Shown here: positions 7,975 to 57,655 of the stretch, piece by piece | Layout: the number at the start of each line of letters is the position of its first letter | Numbering within the stretch: position 1 is the stretch's first letter | DNA from: an uncultured Acidobacteriota bacterium | GTDB taxonomy: Bacteria; Acidobacteriota; Thermoanaerobaculia; UBA5066; Gp7-AA6 | DNA length: 64,000 nucleotides | Direction of reading: 5' to 3' | NCBI GenBank assembly: GCA_963810205.1 | Contig: CAWEMP010000013.1 | Location: 14,573 to 78,572, forward strand | Translations under genes and position numbers: made by a program | The notes under the pieces: generated by a model | The model's database searches: none | What the model was told of the DNA's origin: nothing | What the model saw: only the letters and a program-made list of their open reading frames with translations

Positions 7975-8920
7975 TCAGAATGCGTATGTCATTCGGGCCC
8001 GCCACATGTTTCCGCGGGCGTTTCCGCTCTTGGCGAAGATGGTTCCGTAGGTGACCTGGAGCCCGAGGGGCCGGCTGAGCTGAATGCCGAGGGTCCCGCC
8101 GCCGCCCAGCTGCTCGATCCTGTTGTCGTCGTAGACGCCGTCGGAGGTCGTCGCGCCGCCGTACTGGCCGCGCAGATCGAACGAGAGCCAGAACATCTTG
8201 CGTGAGGTTGTGCGAGAGGTGAGTCTCGAGGACCCACAGCGGATTCTGGCTTCGCACGGTCCCCGGTCCGGACACGTCCGTGTTGTCGGTGTAGAGGTAG
8301 ACGTTCGGGTTCGCTTCGAGCCAGAACGGATCCCTGGGGTCCCCGAACGGCACCACGATCGGCGCCCCCACCCGGAACATCCATCGGTTCGTGCCGAGGT
8401 TGATGAGCCGGTCGCTGTCGTAGTCGCCGAGCGGCGGCATGACCCCGACCAGTCCGTAGACCTGGAACGTCTGCCGGTGCTTCACGAACTCGGCAGGTTC
8501 GAGGGCGGGCGCTCCGAACAGGCCCACTCGGAGGGCCACGTAAGGATCCGCGAATCCGGAATGCGGCCTCACGTTGACCGTTGGAACCCGCCTCGGGGGT
8601 GGGCAGATCGAGGGTGCCGCTGACGCTGCCGAAGATCGGGCTCGCCCAGAGCTCGGCGATTTGCCCACCGATGCAGAAGAAGTGGAGGTAGCTCAAGACG
8701 CCGATCTGGCTCCGGATGTTCGAGTTGCGGATCTGGATGCTCTGGGTGAAGTTGTAGTTGCTCGAGATGTCCATGTAGGTGGGAACGAGGAGGTTCGTGC
8801 CCGCCGGGGCCGGCAGGTAGGTGTGAGCGCCTTCGCCCTGGGCGAGGATCCGGCCGGGCAGCAGCAGTCCGAGACCGAGCAGCGAGCAAAACCGGAACGG
8901 GAACGCGACGATGCATCATC
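7975..8920 (-). pseudogene. Outer-membrane beta-barrel of the MetA/phenol-degradation-pathway transporter family; at least 2 frameshifts
   Basis: Fragments across frames are homologous to the intact paralog at 62382..63329 (LINLGTNRWMF..., C-terminal ...RMTYAF). Adjacent to a sulfatase, like that paralog. Confidence 0.5.
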
Positions 8921-8968
8921 ACTCCCGTTCATCCCCTCTTCCTGGGCAGCCGCTGGCTGAGCACTACT

Positions 8969-11315: not shown

Positions 11316-11363
11316 TGTCTTGCGCCTGGGATTCGTCGTTGCTCGGGATCACCGGGTTCGAGC

Positions 11364-11711
11364 TCATGCGTCGGCCTCCTGGTCGTTCCAGAGTCGATGG
11401 ATCGCGACCATCGTTTCGGTGAGCGGCCCCGAGGTCGGTCCGATGATCGTCATCCGGTTCGGCCGAGCGAGGACCCTCAGGGCGCCCTGCAGGACGCCGA
11501 ACGCCTCCGAGCGCAGGTGGGCGTCCAGCGCCGCCGCCGTCTGCCACCCGGTGACCAGGCCGAACGTGGCCGGGACCTCGAGGTCTTCGTAGACGTCTCC
11601 GAACTGGAGGGCGGCGTCCTGTCGGGCCGCGGCCAGCCAGGCGAGAAGCGCCTGGGAGAACTCGCGGCGTTCGGCCGGGCGGGCGACGATGCGGGCAGTG
11701 AGCACGATCAT
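11364..11711 (-). CDS. ABM (antibiotic biosynthesis monooxygenase)-like small protein
   Basis: Start MIVLTARI with AAGGAA RBS. About 115 aa, composition consistent with a ferredoxin-like ABM fold. Confidence 0.45.
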   Translation of the reverse strand: MIVLTARIVARPAERREFSQALLAWLAAARQDAALQFGDVYEDLEVPATFGLVTGWQTAAALDAHLRSEAFGVLQGALRVLARPNRMTIIGPTSGPLTETMVAIHRLWNDQEADA

Positions 11712-11918
11712 TCCTTGTTCAACTCGATCACTTCGACTCTTCCGGAGAGCAAGAGCCGGGCCCGGTTCGGTCACGGGCCCTCGAGGCCCTGGGGCCGTTT
11801 GGAATCAGAGTGTTGCGAGTTCGACGGAGCCGCGAAGCACGGCTGCGGACCGCGACATCTCGCCAAACCGCGACATTTCGCGGGCGCGGAAAGCTCGGAG
11901 AACTATGATCCGGGCATC

Positions 11919-14528: not shown

Positions 14529-14624
14529 GACGCGATCGTCGACCGCCACGATCGGGTTTCGCGGCCGGAGGCACGGCGCCCCTTTCGGGGCGCCGTTTTC
14601 TCGAGGGACCGGTGGAGTTGAGGC

Positions 14625-15545
14625 CTAGGTCGCTTCGGACAGGATCAGGATCTCCACCCGCCGGTTTTCGGCGCGACCCTTCTCGGTCGCGTTGTCTCCG
14701 ATCGGGTCGGCCTTTCCGCGTCCCTCGGTCTGGATCCGGGAGGCGTTGGCGCCGTGCTTCACGAGATAGTCCTTGACCGATTCGGCCCGCTTTTCGGAGA
14801 GCTTCAGGTTGTACGCGTCGCTGCCGACGCTGTCGGTGTATCCGACGAGGGAGACCTGAGAGCCGGAGTACTTGTCGATGAAGGCGATGGCCTTCTTCAG
14901 GTCGGCGTCGTCGGCCTTTCGGATGGTGGCCTTGTTGAAGTCGAAGTTGACATGCAGGGTCAGCCGGTCGACGACCTTGTTCACGGTCACCGTCGTGGAA
15001 GCCGAGCGGGATCCGCCGGGGCCGGTCGCGGTGACGCCGTACTGCGTGGTGCGATCGGGGCAGACGCGCTTGGAACCGTTGAGGTCGACACTCCCGACAC
15101 CCTGGTCGATCGCGACGCTCGTGGCGTCCGAGGTGGTCCAGGTCAGCGTCGCGCACTGGCCCTGCTGAACCGTGGACGGGCTCGCCGAGGCCGATACGCT
15201 GGCGGCTCTGGCCGGCGGGGGCGGGGGCGCGGGCGCCGGCCTCTCGGCCACGACCACGGGTTTGGCCGGGCAGAGTCCCTTGCTCTTTGCGAGCGATTGA
15301 TTGGCCAGCTCGATCGCCTTCTTCGTGTCGCACGGCTGGCACACCGCATAGGCCTCGTTCTTCAGGTTCTCGGCGGCAAAGAACTCATCGGGGCACTCCT
15401 TGTCCTTTCCATCCCGACGCGCGTTCTCGATCGCCTCGTTCGCCATGACCAGTTCCTTCGGAGGGGCGCAACCCACCAGCCCGCTCACCAACGCGAGGCA
15501 GGCAGCCAACAGAAACAGAGATTTCCGGACCTCGAGCTTCGGCAT
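14625..15545 (-). CDS. OmpA-family lipoprotein, paralog 2
   Basis: AAGGAG RBS then ATG (MPKLEV...). Lipobox LVGC. Same four-part architecture as paralogs 1 and 3. C-terminus ...NRRVEILILSEAT. Confidence 0.8.
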   Translation of the reverse strand: MPKLEVRKSLFLLAACLALVSGLVGCAPPKELVMANEAIENARRDGKDKECPDEFFAAENLKNEAYAVCQPCDTKKAIELANQSLAKSKGLCPAKPVVVAERPAPAPPPPPARAASVSASASPSTVQQGQCATLTWTTSDATSVAIDQGVGSVDLNGSKRVCPDRTTQYGVTATGPGGSRSASTTVTVNKVVDRLTLHVNFDFNKATIRKADDADLKKAIAFIDKYSGSQVSLVGYTDSVGSDAYNLKLSEKRAESVKDYLVKHGANASRIQTEGRGKADPIGDNATEKGRAENRRVEILILSEAT

Positions 15546-15764
15546 CTTCACGCTCCTTCTTGGGCGCATTCTTTCCCTGACGGAGTTTAGACAATATGAA
15601 GTTTCCGAGGAGTCTTTTCGGTGCGGCCGCGTAGTCGATTTGCGTCGATCAGGCTCGTTTCCGTCACTGCGGATGCGAGGTCCCGGCCCGGCCAGGGGAG
15701 GGAGTCCGCCGGACCGGCGGCCGGCACCTCCCGACCCGGCTGAGCGATGCTCCTCCTGCGGGTC

Positions 15765-17462
15765 TCACACGCGGCTCGGCGTCGTGAACCGCTCGAGCGC
15801 ATAGCGCGCCATCGCGTCGGCGAGCTCGCTTTCGCCCATGACGGCCTTGCCGACGTTCTTGCCCTCGAGGTACTCGCGTTCGCCGTCGCTGTGCGTGCGG
15901 ACGACGATGTCGATCCCGGGGTTGATCCGCCGGGCGAGGTCGATGACGGCGCGGGCCTGGAAGGGATCCGGCGCCGTGACGACGAGCAGACGTGCGTCGC
16001 GCAGGCCGGCGTGCTCGAGGACCCCGGGCCGGGCGGCGTCGCCGTAGACGACGGGAATGGCCCGGCGGCGCAGGGAGGCCGCGGCGTCGTGATCGTGCTC
16101 GATGACGATGTACGGAATCCCGCGGGCCCCGAGCGCCACGCCGACCCGTCCGCCGACCCGCCCGAATCCGACGAGGACGGCGTGGTCGCGGAGGCGGCCC
16201 GTGTCGAGACCCGCCGGCGATTCCGGGAGGTCCGGGGCGGACCCGGCGAGCCTGGCGATGCGCGGGTGGGAACGAAGCCAGCGGTCGAGCGGCTCGATCG
16301 TCCGGAACACCAGCGGATTGAGCGTGATCGACAGCAGGGCCCCGGCAACGATGAGGCTCTGGGCGGCGGGCGGGAGCAGGCCGAGGGACATCCCGAGCGC
16401 CGCGAGGATGAAGGAAAACTCGCCGATTTGCGCAAGGCTCGCCGAGATCGTCAGCGCGGTGCGGAGCGGCTGGCGGAAGGCGATGACGATCACGGCGGCT
16501 GCGATCGACTTCCCGACCATGACGATCAGGACGACGGCGACGACCTGGAGCGGCGCGCGAATGAGGATCGTCGGATCGAAGAGCATTCCGACGGCCACGA
16601 AGAAGAGGACTGCGAAGGCATCCTGGAGGGGCAGGGCGTCCGACGCCGCCTTGGTCGCGAGGTCGGACTCGCTGATGACCATGCCGGCGAAGAACGCGCC
16701 GAGGGCGAAGGAAACGCCGAACAGCGAGGCCGCACCGACGGCGATTCCGAGAGCGATGGCGAGCACGGCAAGCGTGAAGAGCTCGCGGGAGCCCGTGCGG
16801 GCGACCCGCTCGAGGAGCCACGGCACGACTCGCCGGCCGACGACCAGCATGAAGACGATGAAGGCCGCGACCTTCGCGAGGGTCCACCCGATCGCGACGG
16901 CGAGGCTCGGTCCGCCGTCCGGGGCGGCGGCCCCGCCGAGCGGCACGGCGAGCGCCGGCAGGAGGACGAGGACGAGGACCGTGACGAGGTCCTCGACGAT
17001 GAGCCATCCCACGGCGATGCGGCCGTCACCGGTCTCGAGCGCGCCGCGATCCTCGAGCGCGCGCAGGAGCACCACGGTGCTCGCGACCGAGAGGGAGACG
17101 CCGAAGACGATGCCGGAGCCCCAGGTCCAGCCCCAGACGCGCGCGACGAGGGCGCCGAGCGCCGTGGCGGCGAGGATCTGGACGATCGCGCCCGGCACCG
17201 CGATGCGTCGAACCGCCAGAAGATCCCCGGGCGAGAAGTGCAGTCCCACGCCGAACATGAGGAGGATGACGCCGATCTCGGCGAGCTGCGAGGCGAGGCC
17301 CGCGTCCGCGACGAAGCCCGGCGTGAACGGGCCGACCGCGACGCCGGCGAGCAGGTAGCCGACGAGGGGCGGCAGCCGCAGGCGGACGGCGAGCAATCCG
17401 AGCGCGAACGCCAGGGCGAAGCCGCCGGCGATCGTCGCGATCAGTGCGGTTTCATGTGGCAT
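15765..17462 (-). CDS. kefB: CPA2 monovalent cation:proton antiporter with C-terminal RCK/TrkA-N domain (KefB/YbaL-like)
   Basis: 12-TM Na_H_Exchanger core plus the VLVGFGRVGG NAD-binding motif. Start MPHETAL. Confidence 0.85.
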   Translation of the reverse strand: MPHETALIATIAGGFALAFALGLLAVRLRLPPLVGYLLAGVAVGPFTPGFVADAGLASQLAEIGVILLMFGVGLHFSPGDLLAVRRIAVPGAIVQILAATALGALVARVWGWTWGSGIVFGVSLSVASTVVLLRALEDRGALETGDGRIAVGWLIVEDLVTVLVLVLLPALAVPLGGAAAPDGGPSLAVAIGWTLAKVAAFIVFMLVVGRRVVPWLLERVARTGSRELFTLAVLAIALGIAVGAASLFGVSFALGAFFAGMVISESDLATKAASDALPLQDAFAVLFFVAVGMLFDPTILIRAPLQVVAVVLIVMVGKSIAAAVIVIAFRQPLRTALTISASLAQIGEFSFILAALGMSLGLLPPAAQSLIVAGALLSITLNPLVFRTIEPLDRWLRSHPRIARLAGSAPDLPESPAGLDTGRLRDHAVLVGFGRVGGRVGVALGARGIPYIVIEHDHDAAASLRRRAIPVVYGDAARPGVLEHAGLRDARLLVVTAPDPFQARAVIDLARRINPGIDIVVRTHSDGEREYLEGKNVGKAVMGESELADAMARYALERFTTPSRV

Positions 17463-17585
17463 CGAGAGCGCCGCCTCGCATTCCGTTTCTCGGCAGGTCC
17501 TGAGGCCGGCGGCGCGCCCGAGCGGGCTCGAGCCGGCCACCGTGGCCGCTGGCTCGCCCGCCCGGGCCTCTCTCCGCCTAGGCGA

Positions 17586-18536
17586 TCATTTGGACAGGAT
17601 GAGTATTTCGACTCGCCTGTTCTGGAACCGGCCCTCGGGCGTCGAGTTGGAGGCGACGGGATCCGATTCCCCGTGGCCGCTGGTCTTCATTCTGGAATCC
17701 GCGGCGCCATGCGACTCGAGGTACGCCTTCACCGCCGCGGCGCGCTTCTCCGAGAGCTTCTGGTTGTAGGCCTCGCTGCCGATGCTGTCGGTGTAGCCCT
17801 CGATCGAAACCTCGTAACCCGGGTACTTCCGGACGAAATCGATCGCCTTCTGCAGCTCGGCCTCGTCCGCCCTTCGGACCGCGGACTTGTTGAAGTCGAA
17901 GTTGACGTGAATGGTGAGCTTGTCCACGGCCCGGGGTCTCACGACCACCGTCGTCGACGCCGTGCGCGACTCGCCTGCGCCGGCGGCGGTCGCCGTGTAT
18001 TGCGTCGTGCTCCCGGGGCAGACCTGGCGGGAGCCGTTGGGCTCCACCCTTCCGACACCGGGCTCGATCGACACGCTCGAAGCCTGGCTCGACGACCACG
18101 TCAGAGACGCGCACTGGCCCTGGATGACGGAGTCCGGGCTCGCGGTGAGAGACACGGTCGGCGCGGGAGCGGGGGCAGGTGCCGGAGCGGGCGCCGGCCG
18201 GGGCTCGGCGACGACTCTCGGCGGGCACGGCGCCGCCGCCTTGCTTGCCGCCTCGAGGGCGAGGGCGATGCTCTCGTCACCATGGCAGCGCCGGTACTTG
18301 GCCCAGGCTTCGTCCTTGAGCGCTTCGGCGGCCTTGAACTGTTCCGGGCACTCCCGGTCCTTGCCGGCCTGCCGCGCGGCCTCGACGGCCCGATCGGCGT
18401 CGGGCAGCTCCTTCGGGAACCACGCCCCGCCGTGGTTGCTATCCCACTCCCACGACGAACACCCGACCAGCAAGCTCAGGGGTAAGAAACAAACGGCCGC
18501 AAGCAGCGGCACCTTCCGGGCCTTGAAGGGAAGCAT
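17586..18536 (-). CDS. OmpA-family lipoprotein, paralog 3
   Basis: AAGGAGG RBS. MLPFKARK... LVGCSS lipobox. A PAPAPAPAPAP linker. C-terminus ...NRRVEILILSK. Confidence 0.8.
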   Translation of the reverse strand: MLPFKARKVPLLAAVCFLPLSLLVGCSSWEWDSNHGGAWFPKELPDADRAVEAARQAGKDRECPEQFKAAEALKDEAWAKYRRCHGDESIALALEAASKAAAPCPPRVVAEPRPAPAPAPAPAPAPTVSLTASPDSVIQGQCASLTWSSSQASSVSIEPGVGRVEPNGSRQVCPGSTTQYTATAAGAGESRTASTTVVVRPRAVDKLTIHVNFDFNKSAVRRADEAELQKAIDFVRKYPGYEVSIEGYTDSIGSEAYNQKLSEKRAAAVKAYLESHGAADSRMKTSGHGESDPVASNSTPEGRFQNRRVEILILSK

Positions 18537-18656
18537 CGCGGCCTCCTTGTTGCCGGGTACTTCATCACAGGTGGTCGGGGTCATCAACCGAGGAACTCAC
18601 TGCCCCGGGGTTCCCAGGGGCCGGCACCGGCCCGGGGGCCTCGCGAGGGAGGGCGC

Positions 18657-19604
18657 CTAGCGCCCCGGGCGCAGGCTCAGGGCCTCGATGCCGACCGAGT
18701 AGATGTCGCCGAGGCCGTTGCCGGGCGAGCGGATCGCCTCGAGGAACTTCGCGTAGGACATGGGGGCGATCGGCGGCCGGTCGAAAACGCCCTGGACGCT
18801 GGTGAAGTAGAAGGCCTTCCCATCCGGGGAGATGAGCGGCGTGTAGGGCGAGTACTCGGCGTTCAGTTTCGCTCCCAGCGACTCCGGGCTCGACCATGAA
18901 CCGTTCTCGAAGTACGAGACGTAGAGCGCGGACTCGGCGCCCGGACGCTTCGACAGGAAGATCATGAAGCGGCCGTCGGGGGAGACGTACTGGTTGGAGT
19001 CCTCCTCGCCGGCGTCGATCGGCGCGGGCAGCGGCTCGGGCGCCTGGTACTTCCCGTCGACGAGCTTCGATCGGTAGAGCCGCCGGCCGGTGCGCGGGCC
19101 GCCTTCGCGGCCGCTCGCCCCGATGTAGAGCGTGCCGTCGGCCGTCACGGACGTCGTCGTCTCGGAGCCGGCGCTGTTGACGGGCGCCCCGAGGTTCCGC
19201 GGCTCGCTCCACCCCGTGCCCGTGCGATCCATCACCCACAGGTCGAAGTCTTTCTTCGGCTCCGTCCCCTCGGTCGGGCGCGTCGAAGCGAAGAAGAGTT
19301 TCTTCCCGTCCGGCGACAGGGTCGGATCGATGTCCGAGTAGCGCCCCGAGAAAGGGGCGATCTCGGGCGTGGTCCAGGCGCCGTTCTCGAGTTTCGAGAC
19401 GACGATCCACATGACGCGCTTGTTGCCGGGGCTGCCCTTGCTGAAGTAGAGCGTCTTCCCGTCGGGCGACAGGGCCGGGCCGAACTCGATGTCGCCGGTC
19501 GAGATCACGCCGGGCGCGAGGAGCCGCGGCGCCGGGGTCGTCTGGGCGAGGGCGGGCCGCGCCAGAATCGCGGCGACGAGTGCGATCCCGATTCGAGCGT
19601 GCAT
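18657..19604 (-). CDS. Secreted TolB-like beta-propeller (PD40/WD40-like repeats) protein
   Basis: Signal peptide, then repeated SPDGK..LYF/ SPDGR.. motifs typical of PD40 blades. Confidence 0.75.
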   Translation of the reverse strand: MHARIGIALVAAILARPALAQTTPAPRLLAPGVISTGDIEFGPALSPDGKTLYFSKGSPGNKRVMWIVVSKLENGAWTTPEIAPFSGRYSDIDPTLSPDGKKLFFASTRPTEGTEPKKDFDLWVMDRTGTGWSEPRNLGAPVNSAGSETTTSVTADGTLYIGASGREGGPRTGRRLYRSKLVDGKYQAPEPLPAPIDAGEEDSNQYVSPDGRFMIFLSKRPGAESALYVSYFENGSWSSPESLGAKLNAEYSPYTPLISPDGKAFYFTSVQGVFDRPPIAPMSYAKFLEAIRSPGNGLGDIYSVGIEALSLRPGR

Positions 19605-27407: not shown

Positions 27408-27413
27408 GGGCGC

Positions 27414-27713
27414 GCGGCGCGCGCTCCCTACGCCCATCCCGAGGGCCGGAGGCCCGAGGGATCCCGGACTCGATTTGCAGTGCCCGCTCAAGCCCGGGAT
27501 CCCTCGGCGCTCCGCGCCTCGGGATGACCCGCGATGGCGTTGCGCGCCGCGGCGCGCGCTCCCTGCGCCCATCCCGAGGTCCGGAGGACCGAGGGATCCC
27601 GGACTTCACTTGCGACCATGCCCGTCAAGCCCGGGATCCCTCGTCGCGATGCTCCTCGGGATGACGGGCTCCTTGCCCTCGGGATGACCCGCGATGGCGC
27701 TGCGCGCTGCGCG
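27414..27713. repeat. Two tandem copies (period ~134 bp) of a hairpin-forming intergenic element with nested inverted repeats (cgagggatcccgg...cccgggatccctcg; catcccgagg...cctcgggatg)
   Basis: Seen in sequence. Further GGGATCC-containing direct repeats follow to about 27870; seven GGGATCC sites in about 450 bp. Confidence 0.75.
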
Positions 27714-32899: not shown

Positions 32900-33004
32900 G
32901 AGACCTCCGCCACACATTATAGTGTGTGGAGCAATGTGTGGCCAGTAGCTTTGATTTCCGGTCGCGCGCCACTCCAGTATTGTCGCGAGGCTCCCGGAGG
33001 ACGC

Positions 33005-34975
33005 TTGAAGAACTCGAAACCCGACAATCGGACCCGGACCCTCGAAGCCCTCCTCCTCGAGAAGCGCCGCTTCCCGCCGCCGAAGGCGTTCGCAAAGGCG
33101 GCGCACGTCTCGAGCGAGGCGGTGTACCGCAGGGCCGACCGCGACTTCGAGAAGTTCTGGGCGGGCTTCGCGAAGGAGCTCGACTGGTTCAAGCCCTGGA
33201 AGAAGGTCCTCGACTGGAAGCCGCCGAGGGCGAAGTGGTTCGTCGGCGGCAAGCTCAACGTTTCGGTCAACTGCCTCGACCGGCACCTCTCGGGCCCTCG
33301 AGGCAACAAGGCCGCGCTCGTCTGGGAAGGCGAGCCGGGGGACCAGCGCACCCTCACCTACCGCGACCTCCACCGCGAGGTCGGCAAGTTCGCCAACGTC
33401 CTGAAGTCGCTCGGCGTGAAGAAGGGCGACCGCGTCACGCTCTATCTGCCGATGATCCCGGAGCTTCCCGTGGCGATGCTGGCGTGCGCGCGGATCGGCG
33501 CGATCCACTCGGTCGTCTTCGGCGGCTTCTCGGCCGAGTCGCTGCGGGACCGGATCAACGACCAGGGAGCCAGGGTCCTCGTCACGGCCGACGGCGGCTG
33601 GCGGCGCGGCCACGTGGTGCCCCTGAAGCAGATCGCCGACGAAGCGCTCGCCGATGCGCCTTCGATCGAGCACGTCGTCGTCGTGCGGCGGACCGGCGCG
33701 GACGTGGCCTATCACTCCGGGCGCGACCGGTGGTGGCACGACCTGATGAAGGACGCCCCGATTCGCTGCGCACCGGAGAAGATGGACGCCGAGGACCCGC
33801 TCTACATCCTCTACACCTCCGGCACGACGGGCAAGCCCAAGGGAATCCTCCACACCACGGGCGGCTACCTCGTGGGCGCATACGCGACGTCGAAGTGGAT
33901 CTTCGACCTGAAGGACGAGGACGTGTACTGGTGCACGGCCGACATCGGCTGGGTGACCGGGCACTCCTACGTCGTGTACGGGCCGCTCGCCAACGGCGCG
34001 ACCTGCCTCATGTACGAGGGCGCGCCCGACACGCCCACGCGCGCGCGCTTCTGGGAGCTCATCGAGCGGCACGGCGTCACGATCCTCTACACGGCGCCCA
34101 CGGCGATCCGCGCGTTCATGAAGTGGGGCACGGAGTGGCCGGCGAAACACGACCTGACGACGCTGCGCCTCCTCGGCTCCGTCGGCGAGCCGATCAACCC
34201 CGAGGCCTGGATCTGGTACCAGAAGCACATCGGCGGCGGCCGATGCCCCGTCGTCGACACGTGGTGGCAGACGGAGACCGGGATGATCCTGATCTCGCCC
34301 CTGCCGGGTGTGACCACGACGCGCCCCGGCTCCGCGACCAGGCCCTTCCCCGGGATCGAGGCGAAGATCCTCGACGCCGACGGCCGGGAAGTGAAAGTCG
34401 GCGGCGGCTACCTCGCCATCACGCGGCCCTGGCCGGCGATGCTCCGCGGAATCTGGGGCGACGACGAGCGCTACGTGAAGACCTACTGGTCGCGCTGGGG
34501 CCAGGACGTCTACTTTCCGGGAGACGGCGCCAAGCGCGACGCGGACGGCAACTTCTGGCTGCTCGGCCGCGTCGACGACGTCATGAACGTGGCCGGGCAC
34601 CGGATCGGCACGATGGAGGTCGAGTCGGCTCTCGTGGACCACCCGGCCGTCGCCGAGGCGGCGGTCGTCGGCGTCGCGGACGAGCTCAAGGGAACGGCGA
34701 TCGCGGCCTTCTGCATCCTGAGGGAATCGGCCCGGGCGGGCGATGGGGATCTGAACGCGGAGATCCGCGGCCACGTCGGCAAGAAGATCGGCGCAATCGC
34801 GCGGCCGGACAAGCTCTTCTTCGTCGCGGACCTGCCCAAGACCCGTTCCGGCAAGATCATGCGGCGGCTGCTGCGGGACCTCGCCGAGGGCCGCGTGCTG
34901 GGCGACACGACCACGCTCGCCGACTCGGGCGTCGTGGCGGCGCTCAAGCAGAAGTACGAGGATCGCGACGCGTGA
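33005..34975 (+). CDS. acs: Acetyl-CoA synthetase (AMP-forming)
   Basis: TTG start with GGAGG 4 nt upstream. [11 protein letters not shown] and the full Acs signature. 656 aa. Confidence 0.9.
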
Positions 34976-36506
34976 GGCCGGCGGGCGACCGGCTCTACGC
35001 CGGCGTGTGGATCGTCGCGGCCGTCAAGCTCCTGGCCCACCTGGCGACGACAGGCCGCTTCGGGTACGAGTACTTCGTCGACGAGCTCTACTTCAACGCC
35101 TGCGCGAAGCACCTGGCCTGGGGCTACATCGACATGCCGCCCTTCCACCCGGCCGTCACGGCCGTGGTGACGGCGGTCGCGCCCGGGTCGCTCTTCGCGA
35201 TCCGGCTGCTGCCGACCCTGGCCGGCGCGGCGCTCGTCCTGTTGACCGGCCTTCTCGCGCGCGAGCTCGGGGGCGGTAAGTCCGCCCAGCTTCTCTCGGC
35301 GATCTGCGTGGCGGTCGCGCCGATCTTCCTCATCGCGCACAGCTTCTCCTCGATGAACGCGTGGGAGCCGCTCCTGTGGACCGGCTGCGCGATTCTGCTC
35401 GTGCGCCTCCTCGACGGCGCGGACCCGCGGCTCTGGCTCGCTTTCGGCCTGCTCGCCGGGATCGGTCTCCTGAACAAGCACACGATGGGGCTTTACGGGG
35501 TCGGTGTCGTCGTGGGCCTCGCCTCGAGCGCCCGCGGGCGCGCCCTTTTCCGGAGCCGGTGGATCTGGGTTGGAGCGGCGGCGGCGTTTTTCGTGTTTCT
35601 TCCGAACCTCGTCTGGAACGTCCGCGAGGGCTTCCCGTTCTTCGAGCTCCAGGCCGCGATCCGCGCCAACCGGCGCAACGTCGAGCTATCGCCGCTCGCG
35701 TTCCTCGGCCAGCAGGCGATCATGCTGCTCCCGTTCACGGCGCCGGTCTGGCTGGGAGGGCTTGGCTGGCTCCTCGTCGATCGCGAGGGGCGTCGCTACC
35801 GCGCGCTCGGCGTCGTCTACCTGACGATCCTCGCCGCGCTCCTCGCCCTGAACGGCCGCGTCTACTATCTGGCGCCGGCCTACCCGATGCTCTTCGCCGG
35901 GGGCGGCGTCGCCGCGGAGCGCCTGCTCGCCGGGCGCAGGCTCGCGTGGCTCGGGCCCGTCTACGCCGCCGTCCTCGTCGCAGCCGGGATCTTCTTCGCG
36001 CCGATGGCGTTGCCTTGTTTGCCACCCGACCTGTACGTCCGGTATTCGCGCGCCATCGGCATGCAGCCGCCGCGATCGAGACCCATCGCATGGGCCCGCT
36101 GCCGCAGCTTCTCGCCGACCGTTTCGGCTGGAAGGAGATGGCGGAGAAGGCCGCGGCGGTCTACCGCGCGCTGCCCGAGGCCGAGCGCGCCGGGGCGCGG
36201 GTCTACGGCCAGAATTACGGCCAGGCGGGGGCGATCGACATGTACGGCCCGGGGCTCGGTCTTCCGCCTGCGCTCTCGGGCCACCTGGCGTACCACGACT
36301 GGGGACCGCCCCCGGTCGACCCGACGGTCCTCATCGTCTTCGACGACGACCGCCCGACGCTCGAGGGCCTCTTCGGCGAGGTCGAGCCCGCGGGTCAGGT
36401 GACCCATCCCTATTCGATGCCGTACCAGCACTTCGACGTCTGGGTCTGCCGGAAACCGAAAGTCTCCCTGCGCGCGATCTGGCCGCGCCTGCGCGAGCTC
36501 GGGTGA
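34972..36506 (+). CDS. GT39/GT83-type (ArnT/PMT-like) membrane glycosyltransferase; 1 frameshift near 36060
   Basis: GTG overlapping the acs stop. N-terminal multi-TM domain in the 32926 frame. The C-terminus (...[14 protein letters not shown]...) is in the 35361..36506 frame. Confidence 0.6.
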
Positions 36507-38099: not shown

Positions 38100-38387
38100 A
38101 TGGATTTCGACGTCCTCTGCCCCTGCTGCAACGCGCGGCTGAAGGTCGATCCGGACCTGAAGGCCGTGATCGCGCACGAAGCCCCGAAGACGCCGCGCAA
38201 GTTCGGCTCGGTGGACGACGCCATCGGGGCGCTGAAGGGCCAGGACGAGGAGCGCGAGAAGAAGTTCGCCGCCTCGATCGAGGCCGAGAAGTCCAAGAAG
38301 GACGTCCTGAACCGGAAGTTCCAGGAGCTCTTCGAGAAGACGAAGGGCGACACGTCCAAGCCCGTCCGCGACATCGACCTCGACTGA
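38100..38387 (+). CDS. Small zinc-ribbon (CxxC...) protein with Lys/Glu-rich tail
   Basis: MDFDVLCPCCNARLKV. 95 aa. Confidence 0.5.
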   Translation: MDFDVLCPCCNARLKVDPDLKAVIAHEAPKTPRKFGSVDDAIGALKGQDEEREKKFAASIEAEKSKKDVLNRKFQELFEKTKGDTSKPVRDIDLD

Positions 38388-40046: not shown

Positions 40047-41180
40047 TCAGGTGTTCAGGCCCTGGCGGAGCTCCCGCGCCAGGATCTCGACTGCCGAGCG
40101 GGTGCCGCCCGTCAGCTTCTCCTTCCAGACCGTCTCGGTCTCGAACCGCCGGTCACCGATCGCCTCGGCCCAGGGCCGGAGCGCCGCGTCGAGCTCGCCG
40201 GCGGACCAGACGTCGCCGCCGCGCTTCCTGACCATGGCGATGACGTACGGGACGATGCGGATGAAAGCGCGCAGCGACGTCGAGCTCTTGATCGAGTACT
40301 TGCGCCCGGCGAACGCCGCGGGGAAGGCCCGGGCGGCGGCCTTGAAGTAGTTGAGGAAGAAGCGGCGGGCATTCTCGCGAAACTCCCGGGCGACGCGTCC
40401 GCCGGCCGTGTCGATGGCGGCGAAGACGTCGCGCAGCTCGTCGGCGAGCGAGGCCTGCGTGACGGTGCCCTTGCCGATGCCGAGGACCTTGATCGATCCC
40501 CTCAGGGGCGAGCCCTCGTCCTCGTTCAGGGTGCGGATGACGTCGTGGGCGGCGGCCAGGTTGTCGTCGCGGTAGAGGCGGCGGCCGGCGAGCGAGATCA
40601 GGTGCGACGGGTTCAGCTTCGTGTGCTTGCTGTTGATCGTGACGAAGAGCTCGACGACCTGGTCGGCCGTGAGGCTGTCGAAGACGACGGCCGGCACCTG
40701 GAAGTCGCGCAGACTGTGCTTCTCGGCGAGCTGGTGCAGGGCGAGCAGGCGGTGCTGGCCGTCGAGCGCCCGGAGGATCCCGGACTCCTCGGGGAGCTTG
40801 AGCGAGCCGGCGTCGGCCCGGCCCCCCGAAGGCGCGAACTCCAGGCGCTTCTCCGAAACGAGCAGGACGCTGCCCGGGATGGCCGGAAGGGTCCCGGAGT
40901 CGGCGCACTGGAGGTAGTACGCCACGAGCTCGTCGATCTTCCTCTTGATGATCGGCCTCTGGAAGGCATGTTCCGAGGCGGCGATCCGCTTCTCCAGGAA
41001 CTCCCAGTTGACCCGTCCGGGGGCCGCTTTCGACTTGCCGCGGGTCGTTTCGCTGCCGGGGCCGAAGGAAAGCACCTCGAAGCCGACCAGGGACTGCAGG
41101 TCCGCGCCCGAGAGCAAAGCCTCGTAGAACCGCACTCCAAACTGGTTCAGCCGAAGCGAGGGCACCGAGACCATTGTCAC
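40047..41180 (-). CDS. DGQHR-domain protein (ParB-like nuclease superfamily; DndB/DpdB-like)
   Basis: LRALDGQHRLLAL motif and the ...VTINSKHTKL region. 377 aa. Confidence 0.8.
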   Translation of the reverse strand: MTMVSVPSLRLNQFGVRFYEALLSGADLQSLVGFEVLSFGPGSETTRGKSKAAPGRVNWEFLEKRIAASEHAFQRPIIKRKIDELVAYYLQCADSGTLPAIPGSVLLVSEKRLEFAPSGGRADAGSLKLPEESGILRALDGQHRLLALHQLAEKHSLRDFQVPAVVFDSLTADQVVELFVTINSKHTKLNPSHLISLAGRRLYRDDNLAAAHDVIRTLNEDEGSPLRGSIKVLGIGKGTVTQASLADELRDVFAAIDTAGGRVAREFRENARRFFLNYFKAAARAFPAAFAGRKYSIKSSTSLRAFIRIVPYVIAMVRKRGGDVWSAGELDAALRPWAEAIGDRRFETETVWKEKLTGGTRSAVEILARELRQGLNT

Positions 41181-41294
41181 CTCCTGGCCGTCCGGGTCGC
41201 CCGGGGGGTCGGATTCCCGTTCCGGGCGGCGAAAGCGTATACCGCCGTCAGGGGGTTTGGAGCCTAGAGAAATGACTCCCGGGCAGGTGGTCTT

Positions 41295-41639
41295 TCAGGG
41301 CGGCGAGACGGTCTTCCAGTCCTGGCCGGCCACCATCTGGTCGTAGATCGCGCTCGCGCCGGTCAGGATCCCGGTCAGCTCGACGGTCAGGATGGCCGCC
41401 AGGTCGGGGAGGGCCTCCGGCCGGGCCACCGGGACCGAGCACTCGACGGTGGACTGGCCGAGCGAGGCGAAAAAGGGCGAGGGCCGGCGGGTCCAGTCCG
41501 AGTCGCTGCGCCGGTGCTTGGTCATGAGGAAGGCGGCCAGCCGGCGCTCGTCCCAGGGCTCGGACATCGTCCAGGAGAAATTCGCCCGCAGGCCCTTTTG
41601 CTCGATGGACGGGGCTTCGCTCGCCAGGGTAATCGACAT
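41295..41639 (-). CDS. Hypothetical 114-aa protein immediately upstream of the DGQHR gene
   Basis: ORF only; no recognisable motif. Confidence 0.35.
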   Translation of the reverse strand: MSITLASEAPSIEQKGLRANFSWTMSEPWDERRLAAFLMTKHRRSDSDWTRRPSPFFASLGQSTVECSVPVARPEALPDLAAILTVELTGILTGASAIYDQMVAGQDWKTVSPP

Positions 41640-41681
41640 GGGACTGGCTAAACGATAGCATCACCGCGTTCTTCCAGGACC

Positions 41682-42465: not shown

Positions 42466-43176
42466 ATGGCGCCGAGACCCTCCCGCTCCACGGCGCGCCT
42501 GCGCTCGGCGCTCGACCGGATGCTGGTCCACGACGTGAAGAACGTGTCGTTCCGGCTGCGGCTCCTCCTCTCGAACATCGACGAGCACTGGGAGGACGCC
42601 GAGTTCCGGAAGACCGTGCGGGAACTGCTGGCGTCGACGGTCGAGCGTCTGGAGGGCCTCGCCGGCCGGTTCGTCGAGCGCCAGGACGCGGTGCTCGTCA
42701 AGATCGAGCTCGACGTCAACGAGCTCCTGCGCAAGGTGGCGGACAAGCCGACCCGCCGCGGCCACCGGTCGACGGGAGCCGGGCCCTCGCTCTCGTTCGC
42801 GCTCGGCGCCGTTCCTCGCATCTGGGGCGACCCCTTCTACCTCGGCGATGCCTTCGGAAGCCTCCTCGAAAACGCCTGGGAGGCGGCGATCCCCGAGGGC
42901 AAGGTCGTTCTCCGGAGCTACACCGGGGGCACGACGCGCCGGCCCCGCGCCGTCGTGGAGTTCATCGACAACGGCGCCGGAATGACGCCCGAGTTCCTCC
43001 GGGACCGCCTCTTCCAGCCCTACGAGACGACCAAGCCCCAGGGCGTGGGCCTGGGGCTCGCGACCGCCGGCCAGATCGTGAAGTTTCACCGGGGCTCGAT
43101 CCGCATCCTCTCGCAGTCGGGCGGGGGGACGCTCATTCGCCTCTCGCTGCCGGGAATTCCGGGAGGACCGGGTTGA
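42466..43176 (+). CDS. Soluble histidine kinase-like protein (H-box LVHDVKN; HATPase_c with DNGAGM, GLGL)
   Basis: C-terminal 236 aa of the 42091..43176 ORF. Confidence 0.65.
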   Translation: MAPRPSRSTARLRSALDRMLVHDVKNVSFRLRLLLSNIDEHWEDAEFRKTVRELLASTVERLEGLAGRFVERQDAVLVKIELDVNELLRKVADKPTRRGHRSTGAGPSLSFALGAVPRIWGDPFYLGDAFGSLLENAWEAAIPEGKVVLRSYTGGTTRRPRAVVEFIDNGAGMTPEFLRDRLFQPYETTKPQGVGLGLATAGQIVKFHRGSIRILSQSGGGTLIRLSLPGIPGGPG

Positions 43177-44558
43177 GCGAGACGGCCGCGCGGCCTTCCG
43201 GGCGGATCGTGATCGTCGAGGACGATGCCGACCTGCTCGAGCAACTGACGTGGGCCCTCAAGGGAAAGTTCGCCGTCTCGGCGGCCCGCGACGCGACGCA
43301 CGGCCGCGTGCTCTGCGAGTCGGAGCCCGATCTCTACCTCTTCGACCTGCGCCTGCCGCCCTCCGGGCAGGTGCAGGAGGGCCTCGATCTGCTGCGCCAC
43401 GTGCGCCAGCGCGATCCGGAGGCGACGGTCGTGATGATGTCGGGCGAGGGCGAGCGGCGATACGCGCTGCAGGCGATTGCGCTCGGCGCCTTCGACTTCT
43501 TCCAGAAGCCGATCGATACGGCCGAGCTCCTGCTGATCCTGAATCGCGCGCTCGAGCGCCGGCGGCTCCTCGCCGAGAACCGGGAGCTGCGGCAGGCCGC
43601 GCAGCCGGCGAGGCCTCTCGACCGCCTCGTGGGCCGCAGCGCCGCCGATGCGTGCCCTGGCGCGGGACATCGAGAGGGTCGCGGGAAGCGACGCCACGGT
43701 GCTCATCTTCGGCGAGAGCGGCACGGGCAAGGACCTCGTCGCGCAGTCGATCCACGCCGCCGGCCCCCGGCGCGACCGGGCGTTCGTGCCGGTCAACGCC
43801 TCGGCGCTTCCGGAATCGCTCGCCGAGGCCGAGCTCTTCGGTCACGAGAAGGGCGCGTTCACCGGCGCGATCGCGTCGCGGCCGGGCCGGTTCGAGCTCG
43901 CCCAGGGCGGCACGCTCTTTCTGGACGAGATCGGCACGCTCTCGCCGGCGGTCCAGTCGAAGCTGCTGCGCGTTCTCGAGAGCCGCGAGGTCGAGCGCGT
44001 CGGCGGCCGGCGGCCGATCCCGGTCGACTTCCGGCTGATCTCGGCGACCAACGAGGACCTCGAGGCGCGCGTCGCCGCGGGCACGTTCCGGGAGGACCTC
44101 TTCTATCGCATTCACACGGTGCCGCTTCGCATCGCGCCGCTGCGCGAGCGGGGCGAGGACATCGCGCTCCTCTCCGAGCACTTTCTCGCGCTCTTCGGGC
44201 AGCGGCACGGGAAGGTCGACCTGCGCCTGTCCGCGGGTGCCCTCGCGCGGCTCCAGGCTCATGCCTGGAAGGGAAACGTGCGCGAGCTGCAGCACGTCAT
44301 CGAGATGCTCGTCCTCTTCTCGCGACGCCCCCGAGATCGGCGAGGAGGAGCTGCCGAGGGCCCTCCGGGAGGGGCCGGCGGCGGTCGGGACGCGCCGCGG
44401 CGCCGGCGAAGGACTTCGCGTCGGCCGTCGAGGAGTTCGAGCGCCGGACGCTCTCGGCGGCGATCGCGGCGGCCGGGGGCGTGAAGGCGGAGGCGGCTCG
44501 ACGGCTCGGGCTCGACGCGAACCAGATCAAGTACCTGTGCCGGAAGTACGGGCTCTAG
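43173..44558 (+). CDS. Sigma-54-dependent response regulator (REC + AAA+ + Fis HTH); two compensating frameshifts
   Basis: The REC domain and HTH lie in the 43173 frame. The AAA+ core (GESGTGKD, GAFTGA) lies in the 43648..44484 frame. Confidence 0.7.
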   Translation: MSETAARPSGRIVIVEDDADLLEQLTWALKGKFAVSAARDATHGRVLCESEPDLYLFDLRLPPSGQVQEGLDLLRHVRQRDPEATVVMMSGEGERRYALQAIALGAFDFFQKPIDTAELLLILNRALERRRLLAENRELRQAAQPARPLDRLVGRSAADACPGAGHREGRGKRRHGAHLRRERHGQGPRRAVDPRRRPPARPGVRAGQRLGASGIARRGRALRSREGRVHRRDRVAAGPVRARPGRHALSGRDRHALAGGPVEAAARSREPRGRARRRPAADPGRLPADLGDQRGPRGARRRGHVPGGPLLSHSHGAASHRAAARAGRGHRAPLRALSRALRAAAREGRPAPVRGCPRAAPGSCLEGKRARAAARHRDARPLLATPPRSARRSCRGPSGRGRRRSGRAAAPAKDFASAVEEFERRTLSAAIAAAGGVKAEAARRLGLDANQIKYLCRKYGL

Positions 44559-44729: not shown

Positions 44730-45160
44730 ATGGGTAATGAAGTCAAGATCAAGCTGACGGACGCTCAGAAATCCAAGATCAAGGAAGCCACGGGCAAGGA
44801 CCTCCCGGAGATCCGCGTCGAGACGTTCGGCTCGAGCCCGGCCTCGATGTCGGCGAGCTCCCCGCTGAAGGCCACCCGCGCCATGCGCGCCGCCAAGTCG
44901 CTGCGTGCCGCGAAGTCGTTGCGCGCCGCGAAGTCGCTGCGTGCCGCGAAGTCGCTGCGTGCCGCGCAAGTCGCTGCGTGCCGCGCAAGTCCCTGCGCGC
45001 CGCGAAGTCCCTGCGCGCCGCGAAGTCGCTGCGTGCCGCGAAGTCCCTGCGCGCCGCGAAGTCCCTGCGTGCCGCGAAATCGCTGCGTGCCGCGAAGTCC
45101 CTGCGCGCGGCCAAGTCGCTGCGTGCCGCCAAGTCCCTGCGCGCCGCGAAGTCCCTCTAG
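44730..45160 (+). CDS. Small protein: 55-aa Lys-rich N-terminal region followed by about 16 tandem KSLRAA hexapeptide repeats; two indels in the repeat array
   Basis: GAAGGAGGA RBS. MGNEVKIKLTDAQKSKIKEATGKDLPEIRVETF... The 44978..45160 ORF reads (KSLRAA)n to the TAG. Confidence 0.55.
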
Positions 45161-52008: not shown

Positions 52009-52428
52009 ATGAAGAAGGGCGATCTGACGGTGAAGGCGATCGGTCTCGCGGTGGCCGGTGTTCTCGCGGGCTCGCAGCTGCTCTCGGCTCTGCCGAAGAA
52101 CGAGTCGAAGGCCGGCGGCAAGAACGGCAACGCGAGCCAGGACGCCAAGGACAAGACGGCCGCTTCCTCCGACAAGCACGTCTGCAAGGGCATGAACTCG
52201 TGCAAGGGGAAGGGCGGTTGTAAGAGCGGCGACGCCGGCTGCGCGGGCAAGAACTCCTGCAAGGGCAAGGGCGGCTGCGCTTCGGCCGACATGAAGCACT
52301 CCTGCAAGGGCATGAACGCGTGCAAGGGCCAGGGCGGCTGCAAGAGCGGCGAGAACGGCTGCGCCGGCAAGAACTCCTGCAAGGGCAAGGGCGGCTGCGC
52401 GGTTCCGGTCGCGAAGAAGGCGGCCTAG
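52009..52428 (+). CDS. Cys-rich RiPP precursor candidate: Sec signal peptide plus two near-identical 6-Cys modules (12 Cys), bufferin/BUF_6/12Cys-like
   Basis: AAAGGAGACAGGG RBS. MKKGDLTVKAIGLAVAGVLAGSQLLSALP. Modules HVCKGMNSCKGKGGCKSGDAGCAGKNSCKGKGGCA and HSCKGMNACKGQGGCKSGENGCAGKNSCKGKGGCA. Confidence 0.7.
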   Translation: MKKGDLTVKAIGLAVAGVLAGSQLLSALPKNESKAGGKNGNASQDAKDKTAASSDKHVCKGMNSCKGKGGCKSGDAGCAGKNSCKGKGGCASADMKHSCKGMNACKGQGGCKSGENGCAGKNSCKGKGGCAVPVAKKAA

Positions 52429-56520: not shown

Positions 56521-56562
56521 GACGGCCGGGCGCGGGAAGTCAGGAGCCCGGAGGCAACGATC

Positions 56563-57655
56563 GGGGTCAGCCCTGAAGGTCTGACGATTGGGGTCTGACC
56601 TGAAAGTCTGAAGGTTCGTGCCCGAGCGCGGACGCGACCCGCTCGACGCGTCTTGCGAGAGCCGGATCGCGAACCATCGCCCTCTCCAGCCGGCGCAGGC
56701 CGTGGGCGAACGCGGATTCGTCTCGCCCGAAGCAGCCGGCCAGCGCAGCAGCCGCGATCCCATGGTCCCGCCGCCCGACATAAGCGGTGATCAGACGTGC
56801 CTGTGACTCCGCTCGGCCCTGCGACGGCCCCTTCAGCCAACCGAGCGAGAAGCCCTGCAGCGTGCATGCTGCAGTCGCGAATGTCGACGGCGTCCAGCGG
56901 CTCTCCTTTGGCAAGGCCAACCGCGCCTCGTGCAACGAGCGCCGCGCGAACTCCTCCCCACCCTTGACGACGCGCCCGAGCGGTTCGACGTCGTCGTAGG
57001 ATTCAGGCTCGGCGGATCCCATCCAGTGCCGATACGCCGCGCGCGCTCGTGGCCGAGTCGACGCGAGCCGCTGCAGCACGAAATCGACATCGAGCCAGCT
57101 CGGTCCTCCTCCCTCGCGGTACCACCGATCGCTTGACCAGGGGAAGACCTCGGGTCGGTCCACGATCCCGGCCTTGACCGGATTGAGGTGAATGTACCGG
57201 ACGAGCGTCGCCAGGTAGCGCTCATGCTCCACGAGGAAGGCCTTGTACCGGCCCTGAAAGAGATGGCCGACGCGATCGTGCCGGACGTTGAACTTCTGGC
57301 TGTAGTAGAAATGCAGCGCCAGCATGACCTTCGAGAGGAGGACGGGACCTCGCTCGATCGCCAGATGGACGTGGTTCGGCATGAGGCAATAGGCGAGCAC
57401 GCCGAACCCATATCGATCGCGGCATTCGGCGAGTCGCGAGAGGTACAGTCGCCGATCTGCGTCGTCGCGGAAGAGGTCACGCCGCTCGTTTCCGCGGGCG
57501 ATGACGTGATAAACGCCCCCGGCGATCTCGACTCGCGGCGCGCGCGACATCGCTTCCGATTTCGCTCCTCTATCCCTACTATTGTCGCAAGCGGGCCCTG
57601 AAGTGTCATACCTTCAGGGCTGACCCCAAGTGTCAGACTTTCAGGGCTGACCCCC
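56563..57655. mobile_element. REP-associated tyrosine transposase (RAYT) unit flanked by inverted doublets of REP-like hairpin sequences
   Basis: Left GGGGTCAGCCCTGAAGGTCTGAC and GGGGTCTGACCTGAAAGTCTGAAGG. Right GTCATACCTTCAGGGCTGACCCC and GTCAGACTTTCAGGGCTGACCCCC (reverse complements, 1 mismatch). Confidence 0.7.
56567..57550 (-). CDS. tnpA: IS200/IS605-like Y1 (HuH) transposase, REP-associated (RAYT/TnpA_REP)
   Basis: VYHVIARGNERRDLF...LMPNHVHLAIE...HLFQGRYKA (HuH and catalytic Y). The ORF tail reads into the REP. Confidence 0.8.
   Translation of the reverse strand: MSRAPRVEIAGGVYHVIARGNERRDLFRDDADRRLYLSRLAECRDRYGFGVLAYCLMPNHVHLAIERGPVLLSKVMLALHFYYSQKFNVRHDRVGHLFQGRYKAFLVEHERYLATLVRYIHLNPVKAGIVDRPEVFPWSSDRWYREGGGPSWLDVDFVLQRLASTRPRARAAYRHWMGSAEPESYDDVEPLGRVVKGGEEFARRSLHEARLALPKESRWTPSTFATAACTLQGFSLGWLKGPSQGRAESQARLITAYVGRRDHGIAAAALAGCFGRDESAFAHGLRRLERAMVRDPALARRVERVASALGHEPSDFQVRPQSSDLQG

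Follow-up and report, generated by a model that had tools for sequence, protein, structure and literature searches.

A conserved stand-alone DGQHR-domain gene of Thermoanaerobaculia, a candidate nucleoside triphosphate-gated DNA-binding regulator

Introduction

DGQHR/DndB-like proteins are usually taken as markers of DNA phosphorothioation, of 7-deazaguanine modification or of defence islands. The hallmarks of the DGQHR domain are a QR pair, a nearly invariant DGQHR pentapeptide and an FxxxN motif (PMC4619093). DndB is a DNA-binding autorepressor (PMC4507180) that has been described as ATP-dependent (PMC12704722), and DpdB is an ATPase of the ParB fold that forms homodimers, has a C-terminal domain that is helical and not a nuclease, and has been proposed to clamp DNA (PMC10164549). 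A DndB-like protein binds both ATP and GTP, and stand-alone (orphan) ParB homologues are widespread (PMC12704722); nucleoside triphosphate (NTP) binding or hydrolysis is known for DpdB, SspE and the DndB-like protein (PMC12704722, PMC10164549). Here, we describe a DGQHR-domain gene encoded on the minus strand (40047..41174) of a 64,000-nucleotide stretch of DNA from an uncultured Acidobacteriota bacterium of the class Thermoanaerobaculia (GenBank assembly GCA_963810205.1, contig CAWEMP010000013.1, positions 14,573 to 78,572 of the forward strand), hereafter referred to as the window. A first-pass annotation of this DNA had presented the gene as an orphan with a 114-aa upstream partner, to be read either as a stand-alone regulator or nuclease or as a fragment of a lost system.

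The DGQHR gene is chromosomal, and we read it as vertically inherited and as independent of phosphorothioation, 7-deazaguanine and restriction systems. On balance, we favour the reading that the locus is a stand-alone DGQHR-family gene encoding a solo, NTP-gated DNA-binding regulator of the ParB/Srx fold; the domain identity and the solo status are close to certain, and the proposed mechanism has about an even chance of being correct. Proteins of this kind are already recognized; the unusual points here are how strongly the gene is conserved and how consistently its context is solo and housekeeping across phyla.

Domain identity and comparison with described systems

The 375-aa protein matches the DGQHR-domain model TIGR03187 with 119.9 bits (cut-off 58.85; E 1.6e-34) over model positions 2-274 of 276, and the Pfam DndB family PF14072 with 52.4 bits (cut-off 29.1), bearing out the DndB/DpdB-like identity assigned in the first-pass annotation. 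The TIGR03187 model also matches 12 of 12 diverse family members. The three hallmark motifs are found at Q72-R73 (QR), D138-R142 (a literal DGQHR) and F177-N181 (FVTIN, corresponding to FxxxN), and all three are invariant in two alignments of relatives, down to 25% identity. Judged by its sequence, the window protein is a bona fide DGQHR-domain protein, and its relatives already carry the NCBI-type annotation 'DGQHR domain-containing protein'.

In the AlphaFold2 (AF2) model, which is of moderate confidence (mean predicted local distance difference test score [pLDDT] 70.7; predicted template modelling score [pTM] 0.51), the motifs lie in a beta/alpha N-terminal domain that is accompanied by an all-helical C-terminal domain. 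The protein is basic, with an isoelectric point (pI) of 9.67, as is its C-terminal half (residues ~200-375), which is all-helical in the model and family-specific; residues 33-75 form a basic loop modelled with low confidence. The C-terminal 180 aa have no Pfam match at E<=10, and neither the HEPN motif Rx4-6H nor the SspE motif EHxxP is present in the C-terminal domain, indicating that the protein is not a nuclease of a known type. A MotA/ExbB-family match, the sole result of a profile search of PDB sequences, was considered spurious.

The protein falls short of every named equivalog in the family. It belongs to the same domain family as DndB, shares with it the QR, DGQHR and FxxxN motifs and a length of ~360-380 aa and, by analogy, probably also NTP-modulated DNA binding. 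However, it scores only 28.4 bits against the DndB equivalog TIGR03233 (cut-off 328), dndCDE are nearby in none of the 84 loci compared, the window is devoid of the TACGN10CGTA operator of Salmonella DndB, and the HEPN-type motif is missing from the C-terminal domain. With DpdB, the overlap extends to the top structural neighbours (PadC and pNOB8 ParB), the Foldseek similarity not being significant. Yet, the window protein reaches only 43.6 bits against the DpdB equivalog NF041060 (cut-off 300), carries DGQHR rather than the DGQQR reported for DpdB and has no dpdA or dpdC nearby. The model for the DNA phosphorothioation-associated DGQHR protein 1 (DGQHR_dnd_1, TIGR04172) yields 44.2 bits with a cut-off of 450, and PADLOC gives only weak DpdB/DndB domain-level matches to the protein (DpdB, 42.5 bits).

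Similarity to the DUF262/GmrS-type domains of GmrSD, SspE and BrxU consists of a related DGQ(H/Q)R NTP-binding motif and a weak match of the Pfam GmrSD_N model over the FxxxN region (19.8-22.4 bits, under the 33.2-bit cut-off); unlike those proteins, the window protein contains neither a DUF1524/HNH nuclease domain nor EHxxP and is encoded outside defence islands. It resembles the orphan ParB-CTPase-fold proteins, such as PadC and Noc (PMC12704722), in being a stand-alone chromosomal protein, putatively of the ParB fold, without ParA, but lacks a Pfam ParBc match, the GERRxRA box and a recognizable helix-turn-helix (HTH), and the fold similarity of the present model to these proteins is statistically non-significant. 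Canonical ParB of the ParABS systems differs further, given that the window protein is unmatched by ParBc (PF02195) and has no adjacent parA; indeed, no ParA-type neighbour was found in any annotated locus.

Distribution and conservation

When one genome per GTDB species was scanned with the motifs as seeds, at least 485 stretches coding for relatives were recovered. The best 80 of these, without exception full-length and no less than 50% identical to the window protein, were used for comparison. An exact-match query with the window protein in public assemblies yielded no record; the nearest proteins (74-96% identical) come from metagenome-assembled genomes (MAGs) of Thermoanaerobaculia (Acidobacteriota). 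By identity to the window protein, the relatives were divided into four groups:

T1: Thermoanaerobaculia, closest clade, 85-96% identity
T2: Thermoanaerobaculia, sister clade, 74% identity
B: Binatia, Methylomirabilota/Rokubacteria, Myxococcota-type and Thermodesulfobacteriota, 54-61% identity
V: Vicinamibacterales, 50-53% identity

When the library was clustered at 50% identity, 945 clusters matched at E<=1e-3, few of them full-length. A second solo group of ~370 aa, ~28% identical to the window protein and alignable with it end to end, is found in bacteria and in Thermoplasmatota archaea. Viral contigs carry only partial relatives (23-38% identity), and the subfamily itself is absent from them. 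None of the relatives found comes from a cultured model organism, so the practical impact of the family is modest at present.

The elements of the window locus are listed below, with the identity of the T1 orthologues to each window protein where it was compared:

40047..41174, minus strand: gene for the stand-alone DGQHR-domain (DndB/DpdB-like, ParB/Srx-superfamily) protein, 375 aa (TIGR03187, PF14072); 85-96% identity
41180..41185, minus strand: Shine-Dalgarno sequence AGGAGG of the DGQHR gene, 5 nt 5' of the ATG, read from the sequence
41236..41243, minus strand: TATA element GGTATACG, putative -10 box of the DGQHR gene, from the alignment of 19 T1 intergenic regions
41295..41639, minus strand: gene for the 114-aa acidic protein, T1-specific, of no known family (279 homologues); 59-88% identity
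39411..39995, minus strand: LemA-family gene, 51 bp 3' of the DGQHR gene on the same strand (PF04011, 188 bits), syntenic in T1 only; 78-92% identity
38423..39382, minus strand: M48 (HtpX-like) peptidase gene (PF01435, 113.5 bits), syntenic in T1 only; 64-83% identity
41682..42434, plus strand: divergent gene for an HlyD-type membrane-fusion protein, 42 bp from the start of the 114-aa gene (PF16576, PF13437); 61-76% identity

With an EAL protein at 54-79%, the DGQHR gene is the most conserved of its block across 19 related Thermoanaerobaculia loci of T1. Its ratio of non-synonymous to synonymous substitutions (dN/dS, Nei-Gojobori) is 0.04-0.15 within T1 and 0.22 in comparison with T2, values that are more likely over- than underestimated given that dS is probably near saturation, and in every pair the other three genes compared (114-aa, LemA and M48) have higher ratios. 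The DGQHR gene is thus intact and under strong purifying selection, and the low dN/dS, together with the highest conservation in the block, rules out a decaying remnant. The window has a G+C content of ~68% throughout, without a break in base composition at the locus, and no mobile-element, integrase or tRNA signatures were found there.

Genomic neighbourhoods

All open reading frames (ORFs) that reach 60 aa and lie no more than 6 kb from the DGQHR gene were clustered across the 84 loci. The only clusters found in all four groups were overlapping alternative frames of the DGQHR gene itself; no other gene family was shared between the lineages, and each lineage displays its own stable housekeeping synteny around the gene:

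T1: HlyD, 114-aa gene, DGQHR, LemA, M48
T2: a Big_2 protein upstream and three Ser/Thr kinases downstream
V: acyltransferase, OsmC and FTR1 upstream and LamB/YcsF downstream
B: GreA, DAO, EamA, SBP_bac_5 and PpiD in varying subsets
Four Myxococcota-type MAGs (L029, L030, L031 and L057): iscS-mnmA-rnc-DGQHR-era-der, with the DGQHR gene on the same strand

In one of the latter (L029, region 8898-13659), the DGQHR gene overlaps the rnc stop codon by 4 bp. Four loci of the ~28% identical group (L084-L087) have equally heterogeneous contexts and are likewise solo. For the window itself, Pfam confirmed the housekeeping flanks (LemA, M48/HtpX-like and divergent HlyD-type) named in the first-pass annotation; these genes are syntenic context only.

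The search for a partner system was negative in the window and in the related loci. None of 50 window ORFs matched Dnd or Dpd models at E<=1e-5 in PADLOC, and neither DndB-E nor Dpd proteins nor restriction enzymes were detected among these ORFs and the 119-121 representatives of recurrent neighbours. A linked modification gene was found in the flanks of none of 87 loci (L001-L087), and dpdA (TGT-like) and dpdC were not adjacent in the Pfam lists of L001-L003 and L084-L087. The orphan status therefore holds not only for the window but also for the recurrent neighbours of 83 related loci, and the expectation that DGQHR genes normally occur in dnd or dpd clusters or in defence islands is untrue for this subfamily and for the ~28% identical group of ~370 aa, both of which are solo.

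The PADLOC matches among window ORFs and neighbours were generic (MotB-like proteins, sigma54 AAA+ activators, Hanks-type kinases and an IscS-type desulfurase). Several apparent leads were rejected. The SspA/DndA match pointing to Dnd corresponds, in three loci, to an IscS-type desulfurase encoded with MnmA, i.e. housekeeping tRNA thiolation, and the PD-T4-6, PglW and mad matches, judged unspecific, stem from Ser/Thr kinases, from a sigma54 activator and from further generic domains. A QueA gene located 9 kb from the DGQHR gene in two T2 loci (L002/L003) belongs to the tRNA queuosine pathway rather than to dpd. In the same two loci (11159-19224), three tandem genes for ~890-aa Ser/Thr kinases with PD40/Tricorn propellers begin 27 bp beyond the DGQHR gene; the kinases match the PADLOC PD-T4-6 kinase models at ~1e-95, a similarity that is probably generic to Hanks kinases.

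Gene start and expression signals

Both ORFs described in the first-pass annotation, 40047..41180 for the DGQHR protein and 41295..41639 for the 114-aa protein (both minus strand), are present in the window, and the G+C content at third codon positions (GC3) of ~0.95 in both is that of real genes of this genome. The start of the former had to be revised, however: 19 aligned orthologues and the conserved AGGAGG-N5-ATG both indicate the ATG at 41174, giving 375 aa, rather than the GTG at 41180.

The spacer between the 114-aa gene and the DGQHR gene measures 120 bp. Its sole element conserved in all 19 T1 loci is TATA(C/A)(C/T), which reads TATAAT in half of the loci and GGTATACG in the window (41243-41236), 62 nt upstream of the ATG. 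Downstream of this element, the T1 loci have a leader that varies in length, then AGGAGG and the ATG; the Shine-Dalgarno core (A/G)GG(A/G)GG is conserved in 19 of 19 loci. From its position and conservation in the alignment, we regard the TATA element as the putative -10 box of the DGQHR gene, which would then be transcribed from its own promoter. A consensus promoter scan of the window did not call the element at 41236..41243; it reported a plus-strand promoter-like site at 41633-41661, near the HlyD-type gene. The spacer RNA folds no better than shuffled sequence (z -1.13), and Rfam searches of the window and two related loci identified no RNA family near the DGQHR gene. In four T1 loci (L015, L018, L019 and L020), the 5' leader that separates the TATAAT box from the Shine-Dalgarno sequence is longer and conserved from one of these loci to the next, at ~110 nt upstream of the DGQHR start; leaders in the other T1 loci measure 20-60 nt. 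L019 has no Rfam match.

The 114-aa gene

The 114-aa ORF has 279 homologues, nearly all of exactly 114 aa and 65-95% identical, with the conserved core EPWDERRLAAFLMTKHRR..DWTRRPSPFFASLGQ. Together with a GC3 of 0.95 and a dN/dS of 0.08 relative to the closest orthologue, these homologues identify it as a real gene, which evolves faster than the DGQHR gene. An 88-aa ORF on the plus strand (41392-41658) was rejected as a true gene, given that the homologues support the 114-aa frame. In L001 (9582-9974), a 2.86-Mb contig, a frameshift divides the orthologue into two halves, both of them conserved, and no gene had been called there.

The 114-aa protein belongs to no Pfam family, even at E<=10, and has no match in NCBIfam, PADLOC or PHROGs. 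It is acidic (pI 5.3), as opposed to the basic DGQHR protein. The AF2 model is confident (mean pLDDT 87.1, pTM 0.79) and predicts a beta-beta-alpha-beta-beta-long-alpha topology. Foldseek comparison with the PDB yields weak matches (E 0.01-0.4, TM 0.33-0.49) to SycN/YscB, DR_1245 (YbjN-like), SycE, the AvrPphF chaperone and Spa15, the best being 1xkp_B (E 0.01, probability 0.99, TM 0.46-0.49), with several other chaperones at E 0.06-0.4; nothing meaningful was found among viral structures. The protein resembles the YbjN/AmyR/DR_1245 family and the class I type III secretion chaperones in being a small acidic alpha/beta protein with weak fold matches to them, but differs in having no sequence-family match at E<=10, TM values of only 0.33-0.49 and E of 0.01 or worse. 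Furthermore, the family is confined to one Thermoanaerobaculia clade, and type III secretion genes were not noticed in its vicinity.

Upstream of the DGQHR start, at a distance of 406-545 bp, the gene is present in the window and in 18 of the 18 other T1 loci that include this DNA, but it is absent from T2, B and V. Hence, of the partnership claimed in the first-pass annotation, the adjacency stands throughout T1, whereas the absence from T2 and all other lineages and the promoter-like box of the DGQHR gene itself speak against an obligatory pairing. A functional partnership is possible, clade-specific and unproven. There is a precedent for a chaperone-like partner of a basic DNA-binding protein, as DR1245 has been described as a partner of the DNA-binding protein DdrB (PMC3575483). 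The acidic protein is a T1-specific addition that the family can do without and, by this analogy, may act as a chaperone-like binder of the basic DGQHR protein.

Proposed function and alternative explanations

By analogy with DndB, DpdB and the ATP- and GTP-binding DndB-like protein, the basic DGQHR protein would dimerize through its N-terminal ParB-fold domain upon NTP binding at the pocket formed by QR, DGQHR and FxxxN. This switch would allow it to bind and release nucleic acid, most likely DNA, and the protein could thereby serve as a chromosomal regulator or nucleoid-associated factor rather than as a nuclease. Of the two readings offered in the first-pass annotation, that of a stand-alone regulator remains the best.

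Several observations weigh against this proposal. NTP binding, dimerization and DNA binding by this subfamily are all extrapolated from characterized relatives, and the structural model is of only moderate confidence, the most conserved segment of the protein (residues 182-202) being among the parts modelled with low confidence. Foldseek comparison of the model with the PDB gave nothing significant (best E 0.26), and the profile search of PDB sequences identified no relative. No DndB-type operator is present anywhere in the window, nor does the spacer upstream of the DGQHR gene contain an inverted repeat, although the search covered the Salmonella-type TACGN10CGTA and inverted repeats and an operator of this subfamily might differ. 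A partner may be encoded outside the 64-kb window, and the position between rnc and era in four MAGs fits an RNA-related role equally well.

Among the alternatives, a decaying, functionless remnant of a lost Dnd or Dpd system is barely credible. The window does lack dnd and dpd genes, and the nearest named relatives are DndB, DpdB and the dnd-associated DGQHR protein; however, the ORF is intact and preceded by a strong Shine-Dalgarno sequence, it is conserved above its housekeeping neighbours with a dN/dS as low as that given above, all motif residues are invariant, and full-length orthologues (50-96% identity) occur, always solo, in at least 80 species-representative genomes from several phyla. 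The suggestion in the first-pass annotation of a fragment of a lost system consequently has to be abandoned for a gene that is intact, under stronger purifying selection than the LemA and HtpX-like neighbours and solo in at least four lineages. It is improbable, too, that a modification system (Dnd, Dpd, Ssp or another one) employs the protein as its regulator or ATPase subunit, with the remaining genes elsewhere in the genome. Such a dispersed arrangement has parallels, in that DndA is often unlinked from dndBCDE (PMC3632139) and DpdB acts with DpdA on DNA (PMC10164549), and the gene searches covered the 64-kb window of this genome. Yet, the protein scores far below the DndB, DpdB and DGQHR_dnd_1 equivalog cut-offs, and the sole DndA/SspA-like match in the 87 loci, none of which has a linked modification gene, is the IscS-type desulfurase with MnmA. 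Dnd, Dpd and Ssp systems are typically patchy and island-borne in their distribution, as opposed to the fixed synteny and high conservation of the DGQHR gene.

Equally, a one- or two-gene anti-phage or toxin module, in which the DGQHR protein would be an NTP-depleting or DNA-nicking effector and the 114-aa protein its inhibitor or sensor, appears quite unlikely. ParB/Srx-fold DUF262/DGQHR domains are common in GmrSD, SspE and BrxU (PMC4619093, PMC3632139), a small acidic protein encoded beside a basic one resembles an antitoxin-toxin layout, and the T2 gene is followed by kinases matching PD-T4-6 models. Nevertheless, the 114-aa gene is missing from all lineages but one, the kinase matches are most simply explained by generic Hanks-kinase similarity, and no nuclease domain or motif was found in the protein. 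The subfamily is absent from viral contigs and PADLOC gives no more than domain-level similarity; the locus itself has none of the mobile-element, integrase or tRNA signatures and has a flat base composition, and its housekeeping synteny is stable, including the insertion into the rnc-era operon. This last context points to another reading, in which the protein acts on RNA or in ribosome biogenesis, for example as an NTP-gated RNA-binding factor. The same-strand location between rnc and era-der in L029, L030, L031 and L057, with the 4-bp rnc overlap in L029, is consistent with it, as are the frequency of GreA as a neighbour in Binatia/Rokubacteria-type loci and the very basic character of the protein. 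Given, however, that the rnc-era context is limited to four related MAGs, the other lineages having unrelated neighbours, and that the characterized DGQHR/ParB-fold relatives all act on DNA, we regard an RNA-directed role as unlikely.

The strong conservation and solo housekeeping context across phyla argue for a branch of the DndB/DpdB family with a role in neither defence nor modification. A sizeable, strongly constrained branch of DGQHR proteins is thus chromosomal and solo among housekeeping genes in several phyla of soil bacteria and, therefore, neither Dnd/Dpd nor defence should be called from a DGQHR match alone. Should the protein prove to be an NTP-gated DNA or RNA switch, the ParB/Srx fold would gain a conserved function outside defence, which would agree with recent surveys of orphan ParB-fold proteins. 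A broader proposal, tentative and with the odds somewhat against it, is that the subfamily and the ~28% identical group together form a housekeeping, NTP-gated ParB-fold branch that acts on the chromosome or on RNA, independently of defence and modification, in many uncultured soil lineages, and that one Thermoanaerobaculia clade has recruited a chaperone-like partner with a type III chaperone/YbjN-like fold.

Other features of the window

A 95-aa ORF on the plus strand (38100-38387; GC3 0.96) is 79-89% identical across related Thermoanaerobaculia loci and has no Pfam match; by its sequence conservation, it is a conserved small protein.

Some genes of the window show frame jumps. For instance, in a sigma54-type response regulator gene (43173-44558, plus strand), the receiver and HTH ends are in one frame and the AAA+ core is in another (ORF 43648-44484), implying two compensating indels; similar jumps occur elsewhere in the window, including 32926-36402 (plus strand). 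These jumps suggest long-read assembly indel errors or pseudogenes. The DGQHR and 114-aa genes of the window are intact.

The window also contains several repeats. At 44884-45156, an 18-bp unit is present in ~15 tandem copies (88-90% matches) that read as (KSLRAA)n in one frame and overlap several long ORFs on both strands. Tandem repeats of 57/120 bp at 52174-52400 code for a Cys/Lys/Gly-rich low-complexity peptide (CKGKGGCKSG-like), and a 135-bp unit is repeated 1.9 times (86% matches) at 27413-27665, in an apparently intergenic gap. Finally, two short arrays of a 27-bp unit with the common core GTCAGACC (56557-56611 and 57601-57654) flank an ORF on the minus strand (56567-57550) and may represent repetitive extragenic palindromic (REP)-like or hairpin elements.

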